DNA of 64,000 nt from Vicinamibacterales bacterium (GTDB lineage Bacteria; Acidobacteriota; Vicinamibacteria; Vicinamibacterales; 2-12-FULL-66-21), in contig DASSPH010000099.1 in assembly GCA_035699745.1 (NCBI GenBank), positions 129,841-193,840 on the forward strand, read 5' to 3'. This document shows positions 1,887-46,407 of this stretch, piece after piece (positions within the stretch are counted from its first letter, which is position 1; the number at the start of each line of letters is the position of its first letter). The notes below the pieces were generated by a model that ran no database searches, was not told where the DNA came from, and was given only the letters and a program-made list of their open reading frames with translations. Made by a program: the position numbers and the translations under genes.

Positions 1887-2872
1887 AAGAGCAGCCAGAG
1901 GCCGGCGATGCCGAACGCCGCGAGCGCCAGCGCAGCGGGAAACAGGTCGCGATACTCGGTGGTGGTGCGGTAGCCGACCAGCGTGCGCTCTCCGGCCTCG
2001 ATCTCGTGGAGCGCCCTGGCGAGATCGCCGCCGCTGCGCGATCGCAGGTAGCGCCCGCCGGTCGCGGCCGCGAGATCGCGCAGCATCGACTCTTCGAAGC
2101 GGGTGCGGACGATGCGGCCCCCCTCGTCGCGGAGCGGAATCTCGCGGCCGTCCGGCAGCAGTTCGGGGACCGGCACCTCGTTGTCCGACCCGATGCCGAT
2201 GGTGTTCACGTGGTGCCCCTCCTGGCGGTAGACGCCGAGCTGGCGGTTGACTTCGCCGCCGTAGTCCTCGCCGTCGGAGAGCAGCACGAAGATCTTGCGG
2301 GTCCGCCGATCGTCCTTGCGGGCGACCTCCAGCGCGTTGCGCAGCGCCGCGCCGATGTTGGTGCCCATCAGGTTCTGCGGATCGTTCTCGATCCAGTCCA
2401 GATAGAACGCCACGGTGTCGAGGTCGCGCGTCAGGTACGACAGGATCAGCGAGCTCCCGGCGAAGCCGACCAGCCCCACGCGATCGATGTTCTCGGGCTT
2501 GTCCTTGAGGAACGTGCGGATCTCCTGGGTGGCGCGCGAGAACCGCGACGGCGCGACGTCACGCGCCCGCATCGAGGCCGAGCGGTCGAGCATGATGATG
2601 AGATCTTCACGCTCGTACTGCGGCGTGCGGATGCTGAGCGGCGCCTGCGGCCGGACCAGCGCGAACACCAGCGCGCCGCCGGCGATCGCCGCCAGCAGCA
2701 GCGCGCCCGCTTCTCTCTTCCAGGTGGATCGCCGCGACAGCGGCCTGAAGCGCGCCGCGATCGGCGACAGCCGACGCTGCCGCTGCAGGTAGAGAAACCG
2801 GACGGTCAGTGCCGCGAGCAGCACCGGGAGGATCTGCCACCACGTCGCGAGCTCCGGCCGGAGGACGCGCAC
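1883..2872 (-). CDS. VWA domain protein (BatA-like) with N-terminal TM segments
   Basis: 329 aa. MIDAS-like motif IIMLDRSASM...LVGFAGSS...LLSDGEDY; two hydrophobic helices at the N-terminus. Overlaps the moxR start by 4 nt. Confidence 0.85.
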   Translation of the reverse strand: MRVLRPELATWWQILPVLLAALTVRFLYLQRQRRLSPIAARFRPLSRRSTWKREAGALLLAAIAGGALVFALVRPQAPLSIRTPQYEREDLIIMLDRSASMRARDVAPSRFSRATQEIRTFLKDKPENIDRVGLVGFAGSSLILSYLTRDLDTVAFYLDWIENDPQNLMGTNIGAALRNALEVARKDDRRTRKIFVLLSDGEDYGGEVNRQLGVYRQEGHHVNTIGIGSDNEVPVPELLPDGREIPLRDEGGRIVRTRFEESMLRDLAAATGGRYLRSRSGGDLARALHEIEAGERTLVGYRTTTEYRDLFPAALALAAFGIAGLWLLL

Positions 2873-2873
2873 G

Positions 2874-3446
2874 CTAGCCGGTGCGCCGCGGAGTCTTGCT
2901 GCCGGGCGTGGGCGGCCGCAGCAGCTGCATCAACTGCCTGGGCGGAGTGTTCGGCTGCTTGCGCAGCTCGGCGGACAGCCGCGACGTCAGCTCGAAGTTG
3001 TACTTGGTGTCCCAGTCGCCGGGCGCGGCTTCGACCGCCTGGCGAAACTCCTCTTCGGCGCGGCTCAGCCAGCCGAGCCGCGCCTCGGGCTTCTCTTCGA
3101 CGCTCGCCTTCTGGAAGAATGCGCAGGCCGACCAGAAGTGGGGCGCCGCGTCGGCCGGCGCCTTCTGCGCCAGGTCGATCACCTCGTCGAAGCGCTGCAG
3201 CCGATAGAGCGCCCAGAGGTGGTTCGAGACGACGCGCGCGTGCTCGCGCGGCACCATCTGCTTGACCGCGGGCAGCGCCTCGAACCGCGCTTCCGCGATC
3301 TGATAGTTCGCCACCGCCGACTGCAGCTCGCCGTTCGCCAGATCGCGATCCGCGGCGCCGATCGCGCCCGACCAGCGTGCGTAGCCGAGCAGCGCCAGTC
3401 CCGTGGCGAGCAGAATCACGACGACCGTGGACCCGAGGACCTTCAT
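2874..3446 (-). CDS. TPR-like membrane-anchored protein (BatC-like)
   Basis: 190 aa. N-terminal hydrophobic anchor, then helical repeat region (ANYQIAEARFEAL..., HFWSACAFFQKAS...). Lies 1 nt upstream of the VWA gene. Confidence 0.55.
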   Translation of the reverse strand: MKVLGSTVVVILLATGLALLGYARWSGAIGAADRDLANGELQSAVANYQIAEARFEALPAVKQMVPREHARVVSNHLWALYRLQRFDEVIDLAQKAPADAAPHFWSACAFFQKASVEEKPEARLGWLSRAEEEFRQAVEAAPGDWDTKYNFELTSRLSAELRKQPNTPPRQLMQLLRPPTPGSKTPRRTG

Positions 3447-3462
3447 GGGAGGAACGACGATT

Positions 3463-6317
3463 CTACCGTGACGCGGGCGCCGCCGCCTTCGGAACTTTGC
3501 CGAGGCTGATCAGATTCGCCATCAGCTGGTAGGCGCCGACGGTGCCGTACGGGAGCTGGCGCCAGAGACCCAGCCCGACATACAGCCACCGGCCCTTGCC
3601 AAACCGCGCTTCGACAAGCGCCCCGCCTTTCGTCCCAGGGTTGTACTCGAACGGATCCTGGAGCTGGACGAGGTCCTTGTATTGCGCGTCCTTCTCGCCG
3701 AGGAAGTAGAGGCCGCGCTCCTGCACCCAGCCGTCCCAGGCATCCTGCCGGATGCGGTTCGGGTAGGTGAACGCGTGGTGCTCCTTCTCGAGGATCTGCA
3801 CCGGCGCGGTCTCGTCGGTGACGCGGTTGCTGCTGACCAGCGCCGGATAGGGACCGTACTGCGCCTGGTTGAACTCCGCCGTCTTGTTGTACTGGACGAT
3901 CAGCGTGCCGCCGTCCTGCACGTACTTGATCAGGCGGTGGTTGTAGGCCTTGAGATCCTCGCGGCGCTCGTAGGCGCGAATGCCCAGCATGATCGTGTCG
4001 AACCGCGACAGGTTGCCGTAGGCGAGCTCGTCGCTGTCGATCATCGTCACCCGCACGCCGAGCTGATCGAGCGCCTGCGGCACGAGATCGCCGACGCCCA
4101 TCACATATCCCATGCGGATGTTCGGCGCGACGCCGACGTCCACGACCTTCACCGTCGTCGCCGCCGGGATCACCTTGTGCCGCCGCTGGATGTGCGGGTA
4201 CTCGATCACCTGGTACCCCTCGGTGAACTGCTCGGCGCCGGTGAGGTCGGGCGCCTTCGCCCCGGTGGCGCGCGCCTTCAGCGCGAACTGCCCCGGCGCG
4301 GGCCCGGCGGGCGGCGTCACCGTGAAGCGCACCGTGCTGGTCTCCCCTTCCGCCGAGAGCGAGATCGGCGCGGAGGCCGGCGCGACCCGCCAGCCGGCCG
4401 GAACCTCGAGCGCGATGCTGGCGGTCGCCGCCCCCTTGGTGTTGTTCTCGACCGTGACACGCACGTCCTTGCGCCGATCGACGCCCGCCGCGACCTTCAC
4501 CGGGACGATCATCACGTTCGGGGAGACGGTCAGCGACAGGCCGGGCACGACCTTCAGCTCCATGCGCTTCTCGCCCGTCGCGAGATCGCCGGCGTAGCGA
4601 TACTGCACCGGCATCTCGTGCGTCACGCCGACCCCCTTGACGTCGAACTCGAACTGCGCGCGGAACGGCGTCGGCCGGAACGGCAGTCCGTACGGCGAAT
4701 CCGGCTCCAGCTCGGCGCGCCCGGACTCGGGCAGCCGGACCCAGTACGGGTTGGTCAGCTTCGCGTTCGCCGGGATCCTGACGTCGGACGCGCAGGAGAA
4801 CGCCGGCGCGCTGCGCAGCGGACCGAGGTTCTGGCACGCCGCGCCGCCGTCGAAGCCGGTGAGCGTGACGCTCTTGATCGAGGCGCCTTCCGGTCCGCGA
4901 TTCGCGACGCTGGTGGTGACGCGAACCGGCTGATTCCCCATCACGATCCCGTCGTCCGCAATCGCGTCGATGCGAAGTCCCTGCGCCAGGACGATCGCCT
5001 GCTGGTACTGCTGCTCCTTCTGCGCCAGGCGGAAGTCGATCTCGTACCTCGCGAGGTCGCCCAGGCCCATCCCGCCGAGCCCCGACCGCAGCGCCCGCAC
5101 CGCGGTCAACCCCTGCAGCAGCGAAGGCAGCGTCACCGACGGATCCTGCGAGCCCATGAACGCCTTCTGCGCGTCGAGGCCGTGATTGGTGATCTGCGCC
5201 AGTCCCTCGCGCAGACCCGCCGGGGCGTTCGCGCCGGCGTACTGGGAGAGGCTGGCAAGCGTGGTGTCGATCCCCTCGAACAGCGACGTCTCGTCCTTGT
5301 TCCTCTGCGACTCGATCGTCGTCAGCGCCAGGCGGTAGCGCGCGCCGCTGGCGCCGCCGAAGTTCTGAATCGGCGACCGCCCCTGGCACTTGTGCATGCT
5401 CGCGGCCACGCTGCCGACCTCGCCGATCGTGCAGCCGATCAGCGGGTCGTACATCGACGTGTCGATGGTCGCGTACTTCGCGTTGGGATCCGGTGGAGGT
5501 GGAGCCGGGAGATCACCGCCAGCCGGCGGCTGTCCCGCCGCAGCCCGACCCTGGCCGGCGGGCGGAGGCGGACCGCCCCGTCCTCGTCCGCGTCCCCCAG
5601 GCCCGCCGGGCCCGCCCAGCCGGCCGCCGAATCCACCGCCGCCCGGCTGATACAGCTTCTTGATCTGCCAGGGGCGCAGTCCTTCTTTCAGCTGCTCCGG
5701 ATACTTCGTGGGATCGGCCGCCGCGGCGAACGCTTCCGCGGTGAGCGTCGCCGACACCATGTGGTGCTGCCCGCCGCCGGTCCCCGTCGGGTTCAAGGTG
5801 ACGACCACGTCGGGGCGGATCGTGCGGATCATGCGCACGAAGTCGCCGAGGATCTCGTCGTGCCCCCACTTCTGGAGCGTCTCCTGCGGGCTGAACGAGA
5901 AGCCGAAGTCGACGGCGCGCGTGAAGTACTGCTCCGCCCCGTCCCAGCGGTGCGCCTGCAGCAGTTCCTCGGTGCGCAGCACGCCGATGGCGTCGAACAG
6001 CTCCGGGCCGATCTCGTTCTGGCCGCCGTCGCCGCGCGTCGCGGTCAGCAGCGCGACGCGCATGCCCTGGCCGCGTGCGTGGAGGGCGAGGATCCCGGTG
6101 TTCTCGTCGTCGGGATGCGCCGTGGTGTGCATGAAGGTGCCGACGGTGGTGAGCCGCCGCAGCGCCAGGCCGAGCCCCACCTGCCCTCGTGCGTCCGTCA
6201 GCGGCTCGACGAAGAACTGCGGCGAGCGCTGCTGCGCTCTCGCACCGAAAGCCAGTGCCGAGACGGAAAGGGCCAGGACGCCCGACGCCAGAACGGACCG
6301 GGGAGCTTTCATGAGCA
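3463..6317 (-). CDS. PIG-L/LmbE-family deacetylase fused to a C-terminal ThuA/GATase1-like domain, with signal peptide
   Basis: True start MLMKAPRSVLASGVLALSVSALAFGA at 6317; the track merges it into a spurious 1985-aa ORF (3463..9420). Contains the HTTAHPDDE motif of PIG-L deacetylases. The C-terminal 250 aa (MGYVMGVGDLVPQALDQLGVRVTMIDSDEL...LIVQYNK) resemble the ThuA/class-I amidotransferase-like fold. A Gly/Pro-rich linker lies in the middle. Confidence 0.75.
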
Positions 6318-36845: not shown

Positions 36846-37196
36846 ATGTCTACCCAAGACGATAAGGAGCGGATCGCCCTTCTGCAGGGAACATTGGATC
36901 TGCTCATTCTTCGGGTATTGATCTTTGGGGGCCAGCACGGCCAGGGCATCGCCCGGGCAATCGAGCAGCAAACGGACGGGACACTACTCGTCGACCACGG
37001 GTCTCTTTATCCCGCCCTGCAGCGCCTTGAGCGCCGCGAGTGGATCGAGGCGGAATGGGGCACGTCGGACAACAACCGGAGGGCTCGCTTCTACCGGCTC
37101 ACGCGCGCCGGACGCAAGCGGCTGACTGCAGGTACGGGCCAGTGGTACCGGCTGAGCGCGGCCATCGCACGAGTCCTCGGACCTGAACAGGCCTAG
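36846..37196 (+). CDS. padR: PadR family transcriptional regulator
   Basis: 116 aa. [14 protein letters not shown]...[40 protein letters not shown] is the PadR wHTH. Confidence 0.9.
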
Positions 37197-37198
37197 TT

Positions 37199-39817
37199 AT
37201 GGCGCGTCGCCACGACCCTTCGGATGACGAGTTTCGGGAAGAAGTCGAGTCGCACGTCGCGCTCGAGACCGACCGCCTGCTGGCCGAGGGCGTCAGCCCA
37301 GAGGAAGCCGCAATGGCGGCCCGGCGAAAGTTCGGGAACGTCACCCGTGTCCGGGAGAACTTCTACGAATCGCGGCGCGTGATGTGGTTCGAGGACCTGC
37401 GACATGACACGCGCTTTGCAGTGCGCTCCTTGCAACGCAGCCCCGCGTTTACAGCCGTGGCCCTTTTGACTCTGGCAATAGGCCTGGGCGCAAATACGGC
37501 GATCTTCAGCGTCGTCAATGCGGTTCTGCTGCGCCCACTTCCGTATAACGCGCCTGACCAGTTGGTCCTGCTGGAGCATCCGCCGCTTGGCGGGAGCCCC
37601 GCCTGGTTAAGAGACGCCTGGCACGCGCGATCGCGCACGCTGACGGAGTTCGCCGGCATCGAGCCGTCCGCGCCAGCGACACTCGTCGCCGGAATTCAGC
37701 CGATGCCTGTCAACGCTGCGCACGCCACGGCGAACTTCTTCGCACTGCTGGGCATCAAGGCTTCGCTCGGAAGGATCTTCGCCGAGACAGATACCCAGCC
37801 TGGGGCGCCGGCGGTCGCGGTGCTCAGCCACAGCTTCTGGATTCGGCAGTTTGATGCCAGTGCCGACACCATCGGCAAGAGCATCACGCTGACGGATGTA
37901 ACCTTGACGGGCGAGCCGCGCGTTATCATCGGCGTGCTCCCAGCCGATTTCCGCTTCCCCGTTGCGGACCCGCCTGGTGAAGCACCGATATTCGCGAGGA
38001 TGCAACCAGATGTCATCGTTCTCTCCCGGGATGACGCGTTTCAGCAGGTGATTGGAAGGCTCGCTCCCGGAACGACAGCGGCGAAGGCCTCAACCGAGTT
38101 GTCCGGCATCTTTGCCCAAGAAGCGTCCGCACGTTTTTCGGCGCGTTTCGTTGAGCGCACGCGTGTCATCGCAATGCCTCTTCAGGATCGCCTCGTCGGC
38201 AATGCCCGGTATCGGCTGCTGCTGCTCATGGGTGCCGTGGGCTGTGTTCTCCTCGTGGTGTGCGCCAACATCGCCAGCCTTCTGTTGGCGCGCATCACCG
38301 GACGCGGACCCGAGTTTGCCGTCCGCGCGGCGCTCGGCGCGCGGACCGGCCGCCTTGTACGCATGATCCTGACAGAGAACGTCCTCCTCGCCATTTTCGG
38401 CGGCGCAGTTGCACTGTTCCTCGCGTACTGGAGCAATGACGTGCTCCGCTCGCTGCTCGCAGGTCGTGTCTCCTACGTCGAAACCGTCGCACTTGACTGG
38501 CGGGTGTTGGCCTTCAATCTCGCCGTCGCCGCGGCTATGGGTGTGGTCTGCGGGCTCGCATCTCTCGCGACGATTTGGTCGACCCGGCACGCAGGGAGCA
38601 CGACCGCAGCTGGTCGATCCATCACCCGACGCCCGCGCCTAGGTTTGACCCTTGTGGCCGGGGAAGTCGCCGTCGTGTTCGTCTTAGTCTTGATGGCGGC
38701 GCTGTTGTCTCAGACGCTCTGGAACCTTCGTCACACCAGGCGAGGTTTTGACGCGAGCGGACTGCTGACCGCCGGGGTGATGCCGGGAGCGTCCGGCACC
38801 ATTCCCGAGTTGCAGAACCTGACCGTGACGTTCTTCGGCACGATCGTCGATCGCATCGCTCGAGAGCCGAATGTGGAATCGGTAGCGGCAGCGTCAACCG
38901 TGCCGTTCAGCGGTCCGGCTATGGGGATGTCCGGCGTGTCGGTCGTGGGCCGCCAGGCACCCGACAAGACCCCGCCAGTCTCTGTCGCGGCCGTCACACC
39001 GGGCTATTTCGCGACGATGCGGATCCGGTTGATAGGTGGCCGTGATTTCAACAGGGGGGATGTTCCGTCGCGAGACCGCGTCGCCATTGTCAACGAGGCT
39101 TTCTTGCGAGTGATCGCGTCGGCCCTGACACCTGGCACAGAGATCCAGTTTGGCCGCTCTCGCCTGACAGTAATCGGCATCGTCGAGAACACACCGGACA
39201 CGTCGCTCCGGCGACCGGCTCGGCCGTTTGTGTATCTCCCAATGGCTCAGACCATCGGCAGCCAATTCGCTTTCGGCCGGTTGATGATCCTAGTGCGCGC
39301 GCGTAGTGGCGACCCGGCCGCGCTGATCCCCACCCTGCGCAACACCGTCTGGAGCCTCGGACACGACATCGTGATAGATGACGTCAGCACGATGGACGAA
39401 CGGGTCGGCGCGGCAGTGCGCACGGAGCGGGACAGCGCGCTGTTGTTTGGAGTGCTAGGCGCCATCGCACTAGTCGTTGCCGTCGCCGGTGTGTACGGTG
39501 TCGTCGCGTACTCGGTTTCGCAGCGCACTCGGGAGATCGGGATTCGAACGGCTATCGGTGCGACTCATCGTCAGGTGGTGGCCGGCATCGTCCGAGAGTC
39601 GGTTTGGCCCGTCGCAATCGGGATAGGAATCGGGGCTGCCACCGCGGTCGTCGTCGTGCGCGCGATCGCGGGACTTCTTTTTGAAATTAGGCCCACGGAT
39701 CCGCCGACCTACGTCGGGACGGCCGTCGCTCTGACTCTTACGGCCTTGGCGGCAGCGTGGATTCCCGCACGGCGGGCTGCTGGGGTCGATCCGGTCACGG
39801 CACTTCGCGCTGAATAG
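37199..39817 (+). CDS. ABC transporter permease, FtsX-like duplicated (MacB-like) family
   Basis: 872 aa. Two FtsX-type 4-TM modules, each with a periplasmic domain; C-terminal IPARRAAGVDPVTALRAE. Starts 2 nt after the padR stop. Confidence 0.9.
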   Translation: MARRHDPSDDEFREEVESHVALETDRLLAEGVSPEEAAMAARRKFGNVTRVRENFYESRRVMWFEDLRHDTRFAVRSLQRSPAFTAVALLTLAIGLGANTAIFSVVNAVLLRPLPYNAPDQLVLLEHPPLGGSPAWLRDAWHARSRTLTEFAGIEPSAPATLVAGIQPMPVNAAHATANFFALLGIKASLGRIFAETDTQPGAPAVAVLSHSFWIRQFDASADTIGKSITLTDVTLTGEPRVIIGVLPADFRFPVADPPGEAPIFARMQPDVIVLSRDDAFQQVIGRLAPGTTAAKASTELSGIFAQEASARFSARFVERTRVIAMPLQDRLVGNARYRLLLLMGAVGCVLLVVCANIASLLLARITGRGPEFAVRAALGARTGRLVRMILTENVLLAIFGGAVALFLAYWSNDVLRSLLAGRVSYVETVALDWRVLAFNLAVAAAMGVVCGLASLATIWSTRHAGSTTAAGRSITRRPRLGLTLVAGEVAVVFVLVLMAALLSQTLWNLRHTRRGFDASGLLTAGVMPGASGTIPELQNLTVTFFGTIVDRIAREPNVESVAAASTVPFSGPAMGMSGVSVVGRQAPDKTPPVSVAAVTPGYFATMRIRLIGGRDFNRGDVPSRDRVAIVNEAFLRVIASALTPGTEIQFGRSRLTVIGIVENTPDTSLRRPARPFVYLPMAQTIGSQFAFGRLMILVRARSGDPAALIPTLRNTVWSLGHDIVIDDVSTMDERVGAAVRTERDSALLFGVLGAIALVVAVAGVYGVVAYSVSQRTREIGIRTAIGATHRQVVAGIVRESVWPVAIGIGIGAATAVVVVRAIAGLLFEIRPTDPPTYVGTAVALTLTALAAAWIPARRAAGVDPVTALRAE

Positions 39818-39859
39818 CCCGCGTGCCGATGGTTCGCCTCGGGACGTGAACCTCGGCCC

Positions 39860-39968
39860 TTGTAGACCCCCTCTGAAGCGACCTCAATTCTGAGTATACG
39901 CGACTGGGGTATATTGTTATTGTATATAATGCGGCGAGATGCGCTATATCAACTATCATAATATACCC
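39860..39968 (+). promoter_or_regulatory. AT-rich segment (about 30% GC) with TATA-like repeats upstream of the AbiEi-like gene; likely promoter/operator and island boundary
   Basis: ...ctcaattctgagtatacgcgactggggTATATTGTTATTGTATATAATGcggcgagatgcgcTATATCAACTATCATAATATAccc. Contains a perfect TATAAT (39924-39929). Contrasts sharply with the 70% GC flanks. Confidence 0.45.
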
Positions 39969-39970
39969 AC

Positions 39971-40789
39971 ATGGCTGCAGACGATCGGAAGGTGGTCGCC
40001 GCGCTCGCGAGAGCCGCAAAAGGCGGTGTGGTCTCTCTACCCGCCGCACTTCACGCAATTGACGGCCCGCCCGCAAAGGCGGCGCTTCGACTTCGCCGGC
40101 TCATCCGCCACGGTTGGATCGAACGGCTGCGGCGGGGCCTTTACTTAGTCAAGCCGCTCAGCGCGGCTCCCGACCAAGCGGCTATCCCAGAGGACCCGTG
40201 GGTGCTGGCTCGCGAGGTCTTCTCCCCCTGTTACATCGGCGGATGGAGCGCAGCCGAACACTGGGAGCTGACCGAACAGATTTTCCGATCGACGTTGGTT
40301 GTGACCGCTGTGCCTGCTCGAAAGACCGAGCTGCGTATTGGGGGCTACGACTTCCGCGTGTTCCGCGTTCACCGAACTCGTCTCGCTGCCGGAGTCGTCA
40401 ACGTCTGGCGAGGGCCCGAACGGGTCCAGGTCTCTGGACTCGAGCGGACAATCGCGGACGGTCTCCGAGATCCGGAGCTTGTCGGCGGAGGTCGCCATCT
40501 GGTGCAGCTTCTCCGCGCATACGGAGAGCATAAGGACCGCAATTTCGTCCGCTTGCTTGATGTCGCCCGACATACTGCTTCCGGCGCGGCTTGGAAGCGG
40601 CTGGGGTTTCTAAGCGAACGCCTCTGGCCCGCAGAAGTCAAGGTCGTCACCGCCGCCGGCCGCCATCTCACGGCAGGCTACGTCCGTCTCGACCCTGGCA
40701 ATAGACACCATGGAAAGCTCTCCAAGCGGTGGCGGCTCTGGATCAACGTGCCGGTTTCTGACCTGACATCCGAGCCGGCCGCTTCATGA
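39971..40789 (+). CDS. AbiEi-like antitoxin / transcriptional regulator (type IV TA)
   Basis: 272 aa. N-terminal wHTH-like region; C-terminal domain typical of AbiEi/COG5340-like proteins. Stop overlaps the start of the following nucleotidyltransferase gene (ATGA). Confidence 0.7.
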   Translation: MAADDRKVVAALARAAKGGVVSLPAALHAIDGPPAKAALRLRRLIRHGWIERLRRGLYLVKPLSAAPDQAAIPEDPWVLAREVFSPCYIGGWSAAEHWELTEQIFRSTLVVTAVPARKTELRIGGYDFRVFRVHRTRLAAGVVNVWRGPERVQVSGLERTIADGLRDPELVGGGRHLVQLLRAYGEHKDRNFVRLLDVARHTASGAAWKRLGFLSERLWPAEVKVVTAAGRHLTAGYVRLDPGNRHHGKLSKRWRLWINVPVSDLTSEPAAS

Positions 40790-42182
40790 TTGCCAAGCAA
40801 GACATCCTCGATCGCGCTGCCGAATGGCACTTGCGCCCGGAAGTGGTCGAAAAGGACTACGTGCTCGGATGGCTGCTCGCAGGCGTTGCCGCCCTGCCGA
40901 CTCTCTCTGGATTTTCAAGGGCGGCACATGCGTCAAGAAGTGTTTCTTCGAGACATATCGTTTCTCGGAGGACCTGGACTTCTCCCTGCGGCCGGATGCG
41001 CCGTATACGCAGGACGAACTCGTGGCGCAGCTTCGAGAACTGACTGCGCACGTCGCAGAGCTGACCGGCCTGGAGTTTCCGGCTGACCTCGTCGATGTGA
41101 AAACGAGGCAGAACAAGCAAGGGCTACCGACGTTCGAGGGTCGCGTCGCCTATCGCGGTCCCCTCGAGTATCCAGGCTCTCCCAAGATTCGCTTCGACAT
41201 CACGCGACACGAGCCGGTCATCGACGATCCGGCCGAGCGGCCGATTCTGCATCCCTACCCTGACGCGTTGCCCGAGGGCGTCGCCGTGCTCACGTATTCG
41301 TTCGAGGAGTTGCTCGCCGAAAAGACTCGCGCTTTGCTCGAGCGATCGCGGCCTCGCGATTTGTACGATGTCGTTCACCTTCTCGAGAATGCGCCTACGG
41401 ATCTCAATCTGGTCGACGTTCGCAGGCTGTTCGCAAAGAAATGCGCGGGCAAAGCCATCGCGCTGCCTTCGTCGATCGAATTGATCGGCATCGTTGCCGG
41501 CGACGCCGAACTGCGATCCGAGTGGGCGAGTATGCTTGCGCACCAATTGCCAGCATTGCCGGACTTGGACGCGATGCTCTCGAGGCTGCCTGCGGTTCTT
41601 GGCTGGTTGGATGCTCCGTCAAAGCCCCTTCCCGAGACGCAGCTGCCTCGAGTGCCCGTTGGCGAGGGCCTTAGCCCAATCGTTGCACCGGGGATTCGGT
41701 ACTGGGGCGCCGGCTCGCCACTCGAGTCGATCCGGTTCGCGGCGACCAACCGTCTCATGCTCGAGTTCGAATACCACGGCAAGCACCGGCAGGTGGAACC
41801 GTATTCGGTCCGACGAGCTGGCACTGGGAACGTCCTTCTGTACGCTTGGGAACTCGCAGACGGTCACATGAAGGCGTACAAGGTCGACGAAATGTCCGCT
41901 GTCAAGGCGATGAGCGCCACGTTCTCACCGCGATACCAGGTCGAGATCTCGGCGTATGGACCAATACAGGCGTCTTCCACGGCAGCGCATCCGAGAATCA
42001 CGACACCGCGGCAACCGCGCCCCCATTCCGCGCGTCGCGGACCAACCTATATATTTCAGTGCTCGTATTGCGGGAAACGGTTTGAACACTCCACCAATGA
42101 CTCAGCCCTCCGGGAGCACAAAACGCAATCGGGCTGGAAATGCTCGGGACGACGAGGGTACTTAGTCGACGCACGATATTGA
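40786..42182 (+). pseudogene. AbiEii/AbiGii-family nucleotidyltransferase toxin with C-terminal WYL-like and zinc-finger extension; apparent frameshift at (CT)4 near 40901-40908
   Basis: Frame 1 from ATG 40786 gives MIAKQDILDRAAEWHLRPEVVEKDYVLGWLLAGVAALPTLS, the conserved AbiEii N-terminus. Conserved FKGGTCVKKCFFETYRFSEDLDFS continues in frame 0 (track ORF 40824..42182). The junction is actCTCTCTCTgg. The C-terminal 150 aa add R-x-V-x-PY...LLYAWELA...KAYKVDEM (WYL-like) and CSYCGKRFEHSTNDSALREH (C2H2-like). Confidence 0.6.
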
Positions 42183-43208
42183 CTAAACGGTGCGGCGCCA
42201 CTCAAGCCATCTGCTGGCCAAGATCTGGTAATTCCGCGGCGGATGATCTCTGGCACTTTCCCCATGAACGATTCCGAACATCACCGAGTCGCTGGCGGTA
42301 AGAAATCGAAGAAGAATTCCGGTCCACGGGGCCAAGGGAGGAACTCGCCCCGAACCTCCGAGCGCTTTCCTTCGTGGCCTTTGACCCTGTCGTAAAACGT
42401 CGAATCCCTTGGGCCAGGTAGAAGTACGAGATGGCGTCCCATGAGAACTGCAACGCCACCGTCCAGAATTCCTGGCTCCCGAATAATTACCAGGGCTCGA
42501 GCGTCCTTTGGGCTGCTGGGAAACGCGAATCCCGAAGAGCGACGGCGCGGACGTTCGGATGTCGATCTTCTGTCGAACGACTTCATAGGCGGGATCGAGG
42601 ACAAATCGGTATCCGAACTTCGCAAACGCGACGATACATGCTGCCCGTAACCAAGACACAGCCGCGTGGGAAGAGTTGTATTGCTCACGAAATTGCAGCT
42701 TGACATTCCAGTCGCGATCTCCACTCTCCACCAAGCGATTCAGCTCGGCGACGAACGCGGCGTGCGCTGTAGGGGAGTTACGATTCTCATCTCCAAACAA
42801 CTGCATACCCGTCGGCCCGGCTTCCAGCGTCATGTTGACTTGGGTTTGGCCGAGCGCCACCCGAACCCGCTGATCCCGCAGAACACCCGGAGGGTCGTCT
42901 TCGTAACGGGCTGCAATACTCGCGTGAGAGTCCAACATCGATCCCGCGGTGTGATTCCACCTGGCGCACGTCAACGCGATCGCGCGACCACCGGCGAACT
43001 CCGGCGGCGCATGTTCGGCAGTCAGTTGATTCGTTCCAACGGCGGGCCGCATGAAAGCCCGAAAAAGGGTCGGCGTGACGCAAAGGGGGCAGATGTAGAC
43101 GGGACCAATGTGCGGCGGCAGGACGTCGCGGACCACCGATGGGCAAGTCTGCGCGAACGCCTCCGCCCCGCGGTCGAACCACGCAAGGCGCGTTTGCAGC
43201 TTGGGCAT
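42183..43208 (-). CDS. HNH-nuclease-like protein (N-terminal His-Me finger motif), low-GC
   Basis: YICPLCVTPTLF...LTAEHAPPEFAGGRAIALTCARWNHTAG fits CxxC...EH..P..GG....C..N. Local GC is about 57%, versus 70% in the flanks. The C-terminal third is low-complexity and may not be genuine. The stop abuts the AbiEii stop (convergent). Confidence 0.45.
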   Translation of the reverse strand: MPKLQTRLAWFDRGAEAFAQTCPSVVRDVLPPHIGPVYICPLCVTPTLFRAFMRPAVGTNQLTAEHAPPEFAGGRAIALTCARWNHTAGSMLDSHASIAARYEDDPPGVLRDQRVRVALGQTQVNMTLEAGPTGMQLFGDENRNSPTAHAAFVAELNRLVESGDRDWNVKLQFREQYNSSHAAVSWLRAACIVAFAKFGYRFVLDPAYEVVRQKIDIRTSAPSLFGIRVSQQPKGRSSPGNYSGARNSGRWRCSSHGTPSRTSTWPKGFDVLRQGQRPRRKALGGSGRVPPLAPWTGILLRFLTASDSVMFGIVHGESARDHPPRNYQILASRWLEWRRTV

Positions 43209-43247
43209 TCCTATTCAGCACTGATCGTACCTCGAAGCGTCCTCTTC

Positions 43248-43280
43248 GCAATCGCTCACCAAAATCCCTCACGCTTGACA
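43248..43280 (+). promoter_or_regulatory. Conserved direct-repeat motif plus TTGACA upstream of padR (copy 2)
   Basis: GCAATCGCTCACCAAAATCCCTCACGC immediately followed by TTGACA (43275-43280), 61 nt before the ATG at 43342. Confidence 0.5.
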
Positions 43281-43341
43281 GCGCCGCGCCGGACGGAGGA
43301 AACTTTCCGCTCCCATAGTTCGTCTATGCAAAGAGCGGCTG

Positions 43342-43686
43342 ATGAAGGAACCGAAGGCGAAGAACAAGAACGAGCTGCTGCCCGGCACGCTCGAGATGCT
43401 GATCCTCAAAACCCTGTCGATCGGGCCGATGCACGGCTACGGCATCGCCCAGCACATCCAGATGCTGTCGGCTGACGTGCTGACGATCGAAGAGGGATCG
43501 CTGTACCCGGCCTTGCAGCGGATGCGCGTCAAGGGGTGGCTGTCGGCCGAGTGGAAAATCTCGGCGAACAACCGCCGGGCGCGGTTCTACACGCTCACCG
43601 CCGCCGGGAAGAAGCAGCTCGGCCTCGAGGAAGCACGGTTTTCCCAGATGTTCGGCGCGATCATGCGGGTGATGAAGACGACGTAG
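43342..43686 (+). CDS. padR: PadR family transcriptional regulator (paralog 2)
   Basis: 114 aa. LLPGTLEMLILKTLSIGPMHGYGIAQHIQ...[22 protein letters not shown]. Confidence 0.9.
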   Translation: MKEPKAKNKNELLPGTLEMLILKTLSIGPMHGYGIAQHIQMLSADVLTIEEGSLYPALQRMRVKGWLSAEWKISANNRRARFYTLTAAGKKQLGLEEARFSQMFGAIMRVMKTT

Positions 43687-43710
43687 TGGCCTGATTCTCC
43701 GGAGGGTAAG

Positions 43711-46407
43711 GTGGGTTCGTTTCTCCGACGTCTGCTGTTCTTCTTCCAGCGCAACCAGTTCGATCGCGATCTGCAGGACGAGCTGCGCTTCCACGAGGAG
43801 ATGAAAGCGGACGCCCTGGCCGACGCCAACGGCATCAGCGCCGACGAGGCGCGGGCGGCGGCGCGCCGGCGGGTCGGCAATCCCCTGCGGCTGCGCGAGC
43901 AGTCCCGCGAGCCGTGGACCTTCGCGACCGTGGAAACGTCCGCGCAGGACGTGCGCCACGCGCTGCGCCTGATGAGGCGGGCGCCGGCCTTCACCGTCAC
44001 CGCGCTCGCGATCCTCGCGCTCGGCATCGGACTCAACACCGCGATCTTCTCCGTCGCCTACGGCGTGCTCTGGCGGCCGCTGCCCTACCCCGACCCCGAT
44101 CGACTGATCATCGTCCAGTCCGCGCAGCAGACCGAGCGGGGCGTCAGGACCTTCTCGACCTGGTCGCCGGTGTCCTACGACGCGCTCCGCCCGCGCGTCA
44201 CCGCGTTCGAACATCTCGCGGCCTATGTCACGCTCGACGCGCAGCTCAGCGGACGCGGCGAGCCGGCGCAGGTCCAGGGGCTCGAAGTCAGCCCGAACTT
44301 CTTCGCGATGCTGGGCGTCACGCCCGCGCGCGGACGCCCTTTCCTCACCGGCGCCGCCTCGTCAGACGACGATCGCACCGCCATCGTCAGCGATCGACTC
44401 TGGCGCACGTCTTTCGGCGCCGATCCGGCGATCGTCGGACAGTCGATCACCGTCGACGGCATCCCGCGTACCGTCATCGGCGTCATGCCGCCGGATTTCG
44501 GCTTCAGGCCGGTGATCCGGATTGGCGCGCTGCCGGAAACCGATATCTTTCTGTTCAATCGCTGGGCCGGCGACACGGGCCGGAGCGCGTTTCTCTTCCT
44601 GCTGGGGCGCATGAAGCCGGGCGTCACGCAGGAACGCGCCGAAGCGGAATTGACGGCGCTGGTGAACGAGCCGTCGATCGCGCCCACCGGCGCCCTGGGA
44701 ATGGAGGGCACACTCGCGGCGAACGTCCGCACGCTGGCTCGCACAGTCCGCCTGCAGGCCTACGGCATGGAGTCGGTGCGGCCGCTGCTCCTGATCCTGC
44801 TCGGCGCGGTGTCGTTCGTGCTCCTGATTGCGTGCGTCAACGTCGCCAACCTGCAGATGGCGCGCCTCACGGCCCGGCGCGGCGAACTCTCCGTCCGGAT
44901 GGCGCTCGGCGCGGGGCGCCGGCGGATCGTGCGTCAGCTACTGACCGAGGCGGTCGTGCTGTCGCTGCTGGGCGCGTCGCTGGGCGTGCTGCTCGCGCGG
45001 ATCGCGATCGACGTCACGCTGCCGCTCGTCCCGCCGTCCGCGCTGCCCGGCGTCGGCGGGATCGTGATCGACGGCGGCGTGCTGGCGTTCTGCCTCGGCC
45101 TGTCGCTCGTCTCGACGCTGCTGATCGGGCTCCTCCCGGCGCTGCGTGTCAGCGGAACAGCGTTCGGTGAAGGGCTCGCGCTGCACGCCGGCGAGACGCG
45201 AACGACGGGGGACCGCCAGGGCGAACGGCTGCGGACGCTGCTGGTCGCCGGGCAGATCGCCATGACGCTCGTGCTGCTGATCGGCGCGGGGCTGCTGATT
45301 CACAGCTTCCTGCGTCTCACGGCGGTGTCGCCGGGCTTCGAATCGCGCGGGCGCGACGGCGTGGTGCAGACCGTCCGGGTGACGCTGCCGCAACACCTGT
45401 ACGGGGAGCCCGGGCGGATCCATGCGTTCGCGCGCGGCGTGCTCGAGCGCGTCCAGAACCTGCCGGGGGTGACGTCGGCGAGCGTGATCAACTCGGCGCC
45501 GTTCGGCAGGATGTTCATCCAGCTCGACTTCAACATCGAGGGACAGCCGAAGCCCAGGCTCTCTGCCGGCACGCCGAAGATCGACGCCGGCTATTTCCGG
45601 ACGATGGGGATTCCGCTGCTGGCGGGACGGGACTTCACTGCCGCGGACACGGCGGGCGCGCCCAACGTGGCGATCGTCAGCGAGCGCATCGTGCGCGAGT
45701 ACTTTCCCGGCGGCCCGGTCGAGGCGCTCGGCCGGCGGATCCGCATCACCGACCGCGGCGAGTGGCTCACGGTGGTGGGCGTGGCGGCGGACATCCGTCA
45801 GATGGGGCTCGATCGCGACGTGCAGCCGATGATCTACGCGCCGTTCCAGCAGGACCGCAGCGGATTCCTCCGGTTCGTGTCGTTCGTCGCACGCACCACG
45901 ACCCCCTCGGCCGTGGTCGACGGCATCCGCGCCGAGATCCGCCGCGCCGCACCCGATCTACCGATTGCCGGCACGGTGACGATGGACGAAGCGGTTGCGG
46001 CGTCGGTGGCGCCGCCGCGGTTCCGGATGCTGCTGCTGGGGCTCTTCGCGGCGACCGCGATGCTGATTGCGACCTGCGGCATCTACGGCCTGATGGCCTA
46101 CGCCGTGACCCAGCGCCGCCGCGAAATCGGCGTGCGCATGGCGCTCGGCGCCCAACGCCGCGACGTGCTGCGCCTCGTGCTCGCACGCGCGCTCCGCATC
46201 GTCCTCGCCGGGGTGATCGTGGGCCTCGCCGGCGCCGCCGGCGTGACGCGGGTGCTGCAGCGGTTCCTGTTCGGGGTGACGCCGACCGATCCGGTCGCGT
46301 TCACGCTCGTCACGCTGCTGCTGGTAGCCGTGGGGCTGATGGCGGCGTGGCTGCCTGCACGGCGCGCGACCCGGATCGATCCGAGCGTCGCACTGCGCGC
46401 GGAATAG
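43711..46407 (+). CDS. ABC transporter permease, FtsX-like duplicated (MacB-like) family (paralog 2)
   Basis: 898 aa, GTG start. N-terminus VGSFLRRLLFFFQRNQFDRDLQDELRFHEEMKAD typical of this family. Two FtsX modules; C-terminus LPARRATRIDPSVALRAE. Confidence 0.9.
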   Translation: MGSFLRRLLFFFQRNQFDRDLQDELRFHEEMKADALADANGISADEARAAARRRVGNPLRLREQSREPWTFATVETSAQDVRHALRLMRRAPAFTVTALAILALGIGLNTAIFSVAYGVLWRPLPYPDPDRLIIVQSAQQTERGVRTFSTWSPVSYDALRPRVTAFEHLAAYVTLDAQLSGRGEPAQVQGLEVSPNFFAMLGVTPARGRPFLTGAASSDDDRTAIVSDRLWRTSFGADPAIVGQSITVDGIPRTVIGVMPPDFGFRPVIRIGALPETDIFLFNRWAGDTGRSAFLFLLGRMKPGVTQERAEAELTALVNEPSIAPTGALGMEGTLAANVRTLARTVRLQAYGMESVRPLLLILLGAVSFVLLIACVNVANLQMARLTARRGELSVRMALGAGRRRIVRQLLTEAVVLSLLGASLGVLLARIAIDVTLPLVPPSALPGVGGIVIDGGVLAFCLGLSLVSTLLIGLLPALRVSGTAFGEGLALHAGETRTTGDRQGERLRTLLVAGQIAMTLVLLIGAGLLIHSFLRLTAVSPGFESRGRDGVVQTVRVTLPQHLYGEPGRIHAFARGVLERVQNLPGVTSASVINSAPFGRMFIQLDFNIEGQPKPRLSAGTPKIDAGYFRTMGIPLLAGRDFTAADTAGAPNVAIVSERIVREYFPGGPVEALGRRIRITDRGEWLTVVGVAADIRQMGLDRDVQPMIYAPFQQDRSGFLRFVSFVARTTTPSAVVDGIRAEIRRAAPDLPIAGTVTMDEAVAASVAPPRFRMLLLGLFAATAMLIATCGIYGLMAYAVTQRRREIGVRMALGAQRRDVLRLVLARALRIVLAGVIVGLAGAAGVTRVLQRFLFGVTPTDPVAFTLVTLLLVAVGLMAAWLPARRATRIDPSVALRAE

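Follow-up and report, generated by a model that had tools for sequence, protein, structure and literature searches.

Long AbiEii toxins carrying a WYL domain and a likely CCHC zinc knuckle in a conserved, basic C-terminal tail

We studied the abiEi-abiEii locus in a 64,000-nucleotide (nt) stretch, referred to here as the window, of contig DASSPH010000099.1 from a Vicinamibacterales bacterium. The locus is a toxin-antitoxin, abortive-infection pair of the AbiE/MenAT type, and its toxin is a member of an old and large subfamily of proteins, about 470 amino acids (aa) long, in which the nucleotidyltransferase body is followed by a C-terminal tail containing a WYL domain, a basic linker and, very likely, a zinc site. 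This tail may help the enzyme to hold its RNA substrate (see below). Most of the toxin gene lies in an open reading frame (ORF) at 40824..42182 of the plus strand, 452 aa in length, which holds both sequence strings quoted in the original prediction; this had proposed, from the letters of the DNA and its ORFs, a WYL-like and C2H2-like zinc-finger extension of about 150 aa on an AbiEii-family nucleotidyltransferase.

The AbiEii/DUF1814 nucleotidyltransferase body was located at 40890..41606 (plus strand; ORF aa 23-261), with the motifs KGGT, RFSEDLDF and RPRDLYD intact. The Pfam family AbiEii (PF08843) matched aa 23-252 only, with 132.4 bits against a cutoff of 22.5 (E-value 3e-38), and the PADLOC AbiEii model PDLC02317 matched a homologue, P0002, with an E-value of 1e-118. 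Residues K32 G33 G34 T35 and R46 F47 S48 E49 D50 L51 D52 were invariant in 37 sequences, as were E166 K167 and, further on, R176 P177 R178 D179 L180 Y181 D182. The Pol-β-type motifs (hGG[TS]; R-x-[ST]-x-D-x-D; K...R..RD-YD) align to those of 9hlo_B and 6y56; 9hlo_B, annotated as AbiGII, also gave the best profile alignment of the body, and a Foldseek search with the full-length model matched the fold of the body to MenT4, MenT3 and MenT1. In this alignment Ser48 of RFSEDLDF (40965-40967) falls opposite Thr65 of Streptococcus agalactiae AbiEii (9hlo_B), the phospho-acceptor that the toxin autophosphorylates upon binding of AbiEi (bioRxiv 10.64898/2026.01.19.700257). MenT and AbiEii toxins add nucleotides onto the 3'-CCA of tRNAs (same source) and, because the DUF1814 motifs are invariant and Ser48 falls on Thr65, intact members of the subfamily would be expected to act in the same way.

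Beyond the body, the extension begins at about aa 262 (nt 41607) and comprises the remaining 190 or so residues up to the stop codon; the predicted span of 41700-42182 lay inside it and slightly under-called its start. Using the ORF as a database query, we obtained over 100 homologues with lengths of 460-475 aa that covered 93-97% of it; they came from Acidobacteriota, Thermodesulfobacteriota and other metagenome-assembled genomes (MAGs). In an alignment of 37 homologues the extension was conserved as strongly as the catalytic body, and 24 of its columns were invariant across 27 diverse sequences. With a profile built from the extension, 1179 clusters at 50% identity were recovered from 1.84 billion cluster representatives at E-values of 1e-3 or lower, and 610 at E-values of 1e-10 or lower; the full-length matches were 450-490 aa long, had the extension at the C-terminus and, in all those inspected, had it attached to AbiEii. 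The same-length homologues, the invariant columns and the number of clusters argue that the extension is real, as had been proposed, and neither a chance match nor read-through. Read-through or a fused neighbour was also considered by itself and was ruled out by the hundreds of intact homologues.

An artefact specific to the window assembly, whether read-through, a mis-fused neighbour or a chance motif match, is therefore extremely improbable in our judgement. It draws on the two frameshifted genes of the region (see below), which make sequence quality or decay a concern, and on the Pfam WYL score of the window sequence, which is just below threshold; but the same architecture, with 44-84% identity over the whole length, was present in hundreds of independent assemblies and also on complete plasmids from cultured members of Rhizobium, Sinorhizobium, Sphingomonas and Thiodictyon, and the fold and profile evidence for the WYL domain is strong.

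Scanning one genome per species, we found 43 genome loci, all of which had the module C-terminal to AbiEii and, wherever enough upstream sequence was available, an AbiEi homologue directly 5' of the long AbiEii. These loci span more than 10 named lineages, including Acidobacteriota, Gemmatimonadota, Myxococcota, Planctomycetota, Methylomirabilia, Eisenbacteria, Binatia, Actinomycetes and Fibrobacteria. About one quarter of them end after the WYL part, without the zinc tail. Among phage records, none was found to encode the module.

We also considered the module as an independent protein and discarded this possibility, as the short matches were mostly fragments at contig edges that still had AbiEii sequence upstream. 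Three exceptions to the linkage with AbiEii look like deletions or chimeras. In a Candidatus Eisenbacteria MAG (L045, 2143-3321), AbiEi is followed by a 108-aa ORF consisting of the WYL part alone, the nucleotidyltransferase body having apparently been cleanly deleted. In P0141 the WYL-like part stands behind an N-terminus that by eye resembles DarT/DUF4433, and in P0231 behind a phage-integrase-like N-terminus; both are probably chimeras or insertions. Broken partners were observed as well: L002 combines an intact long abiEii with an abiEi gene, 5' of it (5160-6004), whose sequence is divided among frames, and in L020, L023 and L025 the long abiEii itself is in two ORFs. These cases correspond either to frequent decay of the toxin-antitoxin pair or to indel errors in the MAGs.

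The features of the tail, all on the plus strand, follow each other as two folded parts and two linkers. The first linker (41607..41690) is variable and rich in Pro and Ala (20% Ala, 19% Pro and 11% Val in 210 sequences), with a predicted local distance difference test (pLDDT) score of about 62-66 in the full-length model. Next to it, and just 5' of the WYL domain, there is a GIxYWG motif (GIRYWG in the window; 41691..41708), to which we assigned no role and which had low model confidence; its Gly is invariant, and its Ile and second Gly are at least 90% conserved. The WYL domain (41718..41948; ORF aa 299-375) was modelled with pLDDT values of 86-96 as a helix and a five-stranded Sm-like/SH3 β-barrel plus a conserved F-x-P-R-Y-x-V-E, in which the P-R-Y just after the barrel is invariant. 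An Arg/Ser/Pro-rich basic linker follows (41949..42035; pLDDT below 50, predicted as disordered), with a family mean of 32 aa and 16% Arg, 16% Ser and 14% Pro, and then the zinc knuckle. Since both linkers had low confidence, the model suggests a beads-on-a-string layout. Net charges across the 210 members were +3.0 for the WYL domain, +5.1 for the basic linker and +5.9 for the zinc tail, about +14 in total.

Several searches agreed on the identity of the WYL domain, in line with the WYL-like part originally proposed. Pfam PF13280 scored 21.4 bits with the extension alone and 19.0 bits with the whole ORF, against a cutoff of 21.8, the match covering profile positions 3-69 of 70; individually, 21 of 27 relatives matched PF13280 (E-value of 0.1 or lower), and the Rhizobium sp. 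CB3090 homologue reached 27.5 bits, above the cutoff. Two PADLOC WYL models matched, with E-values of 6e-7 and 5.7e-6, and hhalign gave 96.6% against a stand-alone annotated WYL protein of Deinococcus. A WYL-only profile built from diverse members found PafBC in the PDB (E-value 1e-3), and in this alignment R-x-V-E-P-Y/G-N-x-L-L-Y/K-A-Y was paired with R-x-V-E-P-W/G-Q-W-Y-L-V/R-V-F-R. The closest structural matches of the barrel were the WYL domains of DriD, CapW, BrxR and PafBC; with Foldseek, 76 columns of the full-length model, 28% of them identical, superimposed on the C-domain of DriD at 1.5-1.6 Å. The PDB search with the profile of the whole extension returned weak C2H2 zinc-finger matches alone and no WYL protein. 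The β-propeller matches obtained from a single-sequence phmmer search of the WYL part against the PDB were discarded as spurious. Taking profiles and structure model together, we regard the barrel as established as a WYL domain at the level of fold and superfamily.

The signature R-Q-V-E-P-Y is present and invariant, and the position of the W-Y-L triad reads V-L-L. The R-x-F-R-x-x-R-I motif corresponds to K-A-Y-K-V-D-E-M in the clade of the window and to R-S-Y-R-V-D-R-I in deeper clades of the same family. We mapped the ligand contacts of DriD (PMC9186387) onto the family by motif correspondence through the PafBC alignment, not by residue-level superposition. On this basis the invariant Tyr of 'EPY', which is followed three residues later by a near-invariant Arg, corresponds to DriD Y168, and DriD R204 and W206 have their counterparts in the invariant Lys/Arg and Phe/Tyr found in 'K-A-[FY]' or 'R-S-Y-R'. 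The ligand face of the WYL domain thus looks retained, and the conserved Tyr, Arg, Lys and aromatic residues, together with the charge, suggest that it could bind single-stranded DNA or RNA or a nucleotide as ligand. Neither a helix-turn-helix (HTH) nor a WCX domain was detected in the toxin by profile scan or in the structure model. The DriD, PafBC, CapW and BrxR regulators have a winged HTH (wHTH)-WYL-WCX organization, whereas the barrel of the window is fused to an enzyme and has neither the wHTH nor the WCX/dimer domain, which places the toxin outside that regulator family.

The C-terminal zinc knuckle, of about 45 aa, occupies 42036..42179, with putative ligands C413 (42060), C416 (42069), H432 (42117) and C440 (42141). 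Its pattern is C-x2-C-x3-F-x8-L-x2-H-x7-C, that is, CCHC ligands spaced as C-x2-C-x15-H-x7-C. Over the 232 sequences containing the zinc module the four ligands were conserved in 229 (Cys), 230 (Cys), 231 (His) and 228 (Cys) cases. The original prediction had read this region as a Cys2-His2/3 finger. A zinc site is indeed very likely, judging from the conservation of its ligands; however, the first His of that reading is His in 120 of the 232 sequences and Arg in 107, while Cys, Cys, His and Cys hardly vary, so the knuckle is of the CCHC and not of the C2H2 type. The AlphaFold (AF2) model, which contains no metal, predicted a β-hairpin and a terminal strand with pLDDT of about 90 and no helix. 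The proposed zf-C2H2 profile search did not bear the C2H2 assignment out: PF00096 and its relatives scored 13-14 bits against cutoffs of 25-27, and profile matches to C2H2 fingers in the PDB had E-values of 0.01-10. The FmdB/Zn_ribbon_8 ribbon, of which the first CxxC alone is present, scored 17-19 bits against cutoffs of 31-34, and all zinc-finger and ribbon scores with Pfam and NCBIfam were below threshold, at about half their cutoffs. In common with C2H2 fingers and CCHC knuckles, the knuckle has a His ligand, a C-x2-C placed at the turn of a β-hairpin, and conserved Phe and Leu residues in positions resembling those of the C2H2 pattern; it departs from classical C2H2 fingers in having Cys at +8, and not His at +3-5, as its last ligand, in the three additional residues that separate Phe from Leu, and in lacking a predicted helix. 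'C2H2-like' is a fair description, but membership of the C2H2 family is not supported.

As to the role of the tail, we give about an even chance to an accessory binder of single-stranded nucleic acid that serves to capture the RNA substrate. The toxin would consist of the nucleotidyltransferase body and a flexibly tethered, strongly basic tail made of the WYL (Sm-like) barrel, the Arg/Ser/Pro-rich linker and the CCHC knuckle. The tail would keep the enzyme on its RNA substrate and thereby govern its affinity or its choice of target. If MenT/AbiEii can serve as a guide, this substrate would be tRNA, either at its single-stranded 3' end or at another unpaired part. Neutralisation of the toxin by AbiEi would proceed as it does in other AbiE systems, through binding and induced autophosphorylation of the conserved Ser in RFSEDLDF. 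We infer nucleic-acid binding from the basic charge, the conservation of the DriD-contact positions, the tethering and two precedents. The WYL domain of the Thermotoga elfii PIF1 helicase, the only biochemically studied WYL domain fused to an enzyme, is an accessory module that binds single-stranded DNA (ssDNA) (bioRxiv 10.1101/163188), and several nucleic-acid enzymes were among the WYL fusion partners listed in 2014, namely Cas3, an exoRNase, HNH, Mrr, an SF1 helicase and DUF1814 (PMC4012209).

Several points weigh against this substrate-capture reading. Short AbiEii/MenT toxins act on tRNA without a tail, so the tail is not needed for catalysis, and its zinc part appears dispensable, since about a quarter of the genome loci do without it. 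The WYL domain itself departs from the canonical motifs, with V-L-L in place of the W-Y-L triad and, in the window clade, Glu in place of the third Arg of R-x-F-R-x-x-R-I. DriD binds single-stranded RNA less well than ssDNA (PMC9186387). The toxin gene of the window is frameshifted, which limits the worth of this particular copy (see below). Finally, most characterised WYL domains (those of DriD, PafBC, CapW and BrxR) are ssDNA sensors in transcription factors, and this favours a sensory role for the tail instead.

In such a role the WYL domain, with the zinc knuckle, would sense infection or DNA damage in the form of ssDNA, phage RNA or a nucleotide and turn the toxin on allosterically, for example by weakening the binding of AbiEi or by blocking autophosphorylation. 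Such a coupling of sensor and effector was the idea of the original prediction. We regard it as the main rival of accessory binding, which is at least as probable, and as a possible but doubtful explanation, the two not being mutually exclusive. The closest structural matches of the barrel are precisely the sensing domains just named, for which ssDNA is a shown ligand (PMC9186387, PMC11662680, PMC11804915), and the positions matching the contact residues of DriD are conserved; ligand sensing was also the role proposed for WYL fusions in the 2014 survey (PMC4012209), and AbiE systems, among the most abundant anti-phage systems, have triggers that are not known (bioRxiv 10.64898/2026.01.19.700257). 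On the other hand, the known sensors hold ssDNA between their WYL domain and a WCX/dimer domain, and the latter is absent from the toxin. Long disordered tethers are a poor design for allostery, the toxin is already under the control of a separate antitoxin, and the basic linker and zinc knuckle suggest a general affinity for nucleic acid and not a specific pocket. The PIF1 WYL domain, the enzyme fusion that has been studied, is an accessory binder. That the tail makes this AbiEii subfamily a self-contained sensor-effector, whose tRNA nucleotidyltransferase is released or activated by ssDNA or RNA arising from phage replication or DNA damage, seems unlikely; such a device may act, for instance, through displacement of AbiEi or prevention of autophosphorylation. 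If true, it would identify the molecular trigger of an AbiE system and would provide the first example in which what a WYL domain gates is an enzyme toxin and not a transcription factor.

The tail could also be a module for protein-protein contacts or for the DNA operator, which docks AbiEi, oligomerises the toxin or assists the toxin-antitoxin complex in binding the abiE operator, without any RNA binding or ligand sensing. C2H2-like fingers often bind double-stranded DNA, WYL regulators dimerise via neighbouring domains, an inverted repeat lies 5' of abiEi (see below), and there is no role assigned to the conserved GIxYWG motif or to many of the invariant surface residues. We consider this explanation quite improbable, however. 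The AbiEi of S. agalactiae has its own wHTH and autoregulates in the absence of toxin, and co-expression of AbiEii gave no extra repression (PMC3985639). In a PADLOC profile comparison the AbiEi partners of the long toxins had the look of an ordinary AbiEi subfamily. A net charge near +14 speaks for nucleic acid and not for protein, and a sizeable group lacks the zinc tail but retains AbiEi.

With AbiEi-AbiEii of S. agalactiae and Lactococcus lactis and MenA-MenT of M. tuberculosis, the locus of the window shares the antitoxin-toxin order and the overlapping stop and start codons. AbiE/MenAT systems also have in common with it the PF08843 body, the motifs KGG[TS], R-x-[ST]-x-D-x-D and K...R..RDLYD, the MenT1/3/4 fold and the Ser aligned with T65. 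In contrast, the characterised AbiE/MenAT toxins are about 190-300 aa long and have no C-terminal WYL or zinc module, the toxin of the window being about 190 residues longer. The T. elfii PIF1 helicase and the Cas13d WYL1 accessory protein involve other partner enzymes and have no zinc knuckle, so that they provide an analogy of role only.

The fusion of WYL and DUF1814 is not new in itself. Makarova, Anantharaman, Grishin, Koonin & Aravind (2014; PMC4012209) mentioned in one line a WYL domain fused to an 'AbiGII-like nucleotidyltransferase (DUF1814)' and proposed a ligand-sensing role; within the literature searched this was the only paper with both terms (WYL, DUF1814), and no explicit list of WYL-DUF1814 proteins was found in its supplements. 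With its 396 positions, the PADLOC model PDLC02317 takes in the WYL part, aligning to aa 1-396 of P0002, and it matches the extension alone with an E-value of 4.5e-25; PADLOC labels the whole model 'AbiEii', and the zinc tail reaches beyond it. No account of the basic linker or of the CCHC zinc tail is given in the 2014 paper or with the PADLOC model, and no paper linking AbiEii to a zinc finger was found within the same literature. The basic disordered linker, the CCHC knuckle and the size and spread of the subfamily seem undescribed so far. The only annotation of the homologues is 'AbiEii/AbiGii toxin family protein'; for all 120 listed, PF08843 was the sole family among the precomputed Pfam assignments, and recording the domain content of the tail improves the annotation of the family. 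The long-toxin subfamily offers a handle for asking whether AbiEii toxins are directed to particular RNAs or have single-stranded nucleic acid as their switch.

Cultured carriers available for study include R. sullae and Rhizobium sp. CB3090. In the latter, the conjugative plasmid pCB3090_2 encodes an AbiEi of 261 aa (WP_283060973.1) and an AbiEii of 474 aa (WP_283060974.1) at positions 2278-4480 of locus L046. A HipA toxin gene and an IS256 transposase are neighbours of this copy, which represents a practical starting point for experiments.

The abiEii copy of the window is, as sequenced, frameshifted at codon 40-41 and its reading frame is not intact; this concerns one copy and not the family, and it had escaped the original prediction. 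The ATG at 40824 is not the true start of the gene: the conserved N-terminus, MIAKQDILDRAAEWHLRPEVVEKDYVLGWLLAG..., opens in another frame at the ATG at 40786, which overlaps the stop codon of abiEi as ATGA. The true 5' end (40786..40907, plus strand) comprises codons 1-40, MIAKQDILDRAAEWHLRPEVVEKDYVLGWLLAGVAALPTL, in a frame that differs from that of the rest of the gene, and the corresponding N-terminal segment was nearly invariant in the alignment of 37 homologues. DNA alignment with two intact homologues, L001 and L002, located the frameshift at 40899..40912 (plus strand), as a 4-nt gap after 40907 in or beside a CTCTCTC run. We consider the gene disrupted because this gap parts the conserved N-terminal 40 codons from the rest; in simulations, repair of the frame gave a product of about 465 aa. 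In the deposited annotation (P0001; 'MAG TPA Vicinamibacterales bacterium', 100% identical) the protein was called from an internal Met and has 437 aa. As an N-terminal tag abolished the toxicity of S. agalactiae AbiEii (PMC3985639), the truncated protein of the window is probably inactive, or else the assembly is wrong at this site.

The antitoxin gene abiEi (39971..40789, plus strand) is intact and encodes 272 aa. Its product matched Pfam AbiEi_4 (E-value 1e-6) and the PADLOC AbiEi model PDLC02271 (E-value 5e-67), and it scored 21.6 bits with AbiEi_1, just below the cutoff of 22.2. Directly 5' of its ATG there is an AT-rich imperfect inverted repeat (39907..39968, unstranded) with 27-nt arms, an 8-nt spacer and 74% complementarity, which contains the sequence TATAAT. 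By analogy with S. agalactiae AbiEi, which autoregulates via inverted repeats (PMC3985639), this region is a candidate AbiEi operator/promoter; its simple pattern had no match in the homologous loci.

Downstream of abiEii, a gene on the minus strand, from 43208 to 42183, is frameshifted too, near 42720, with the switch around ...SQQPKG / DARALVII.... Its N-terminal part is rich in CxxC...H and gave merely a faint HNH_5 match; the joined translation matched no Pfam or NCBIfam family, and no NCBIfam family was matched by the long toxin or AbiEi either. The two abi genes and this broken gene are contained in a low-GC stretch (39818-43341) with a GC content of 0.58-0.63, as compared with about 0.69 in the rest of the window. 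No convincing direct repeats were found flanking its borders. The stretch sits between two tandem, paralogous pairs of a PadR regulator and a MacB/FtsX-type permease (36846-39817 and 43342-46407), and it has the appearance of either an acquired islet in decay or a variable region that was poorly assembled.

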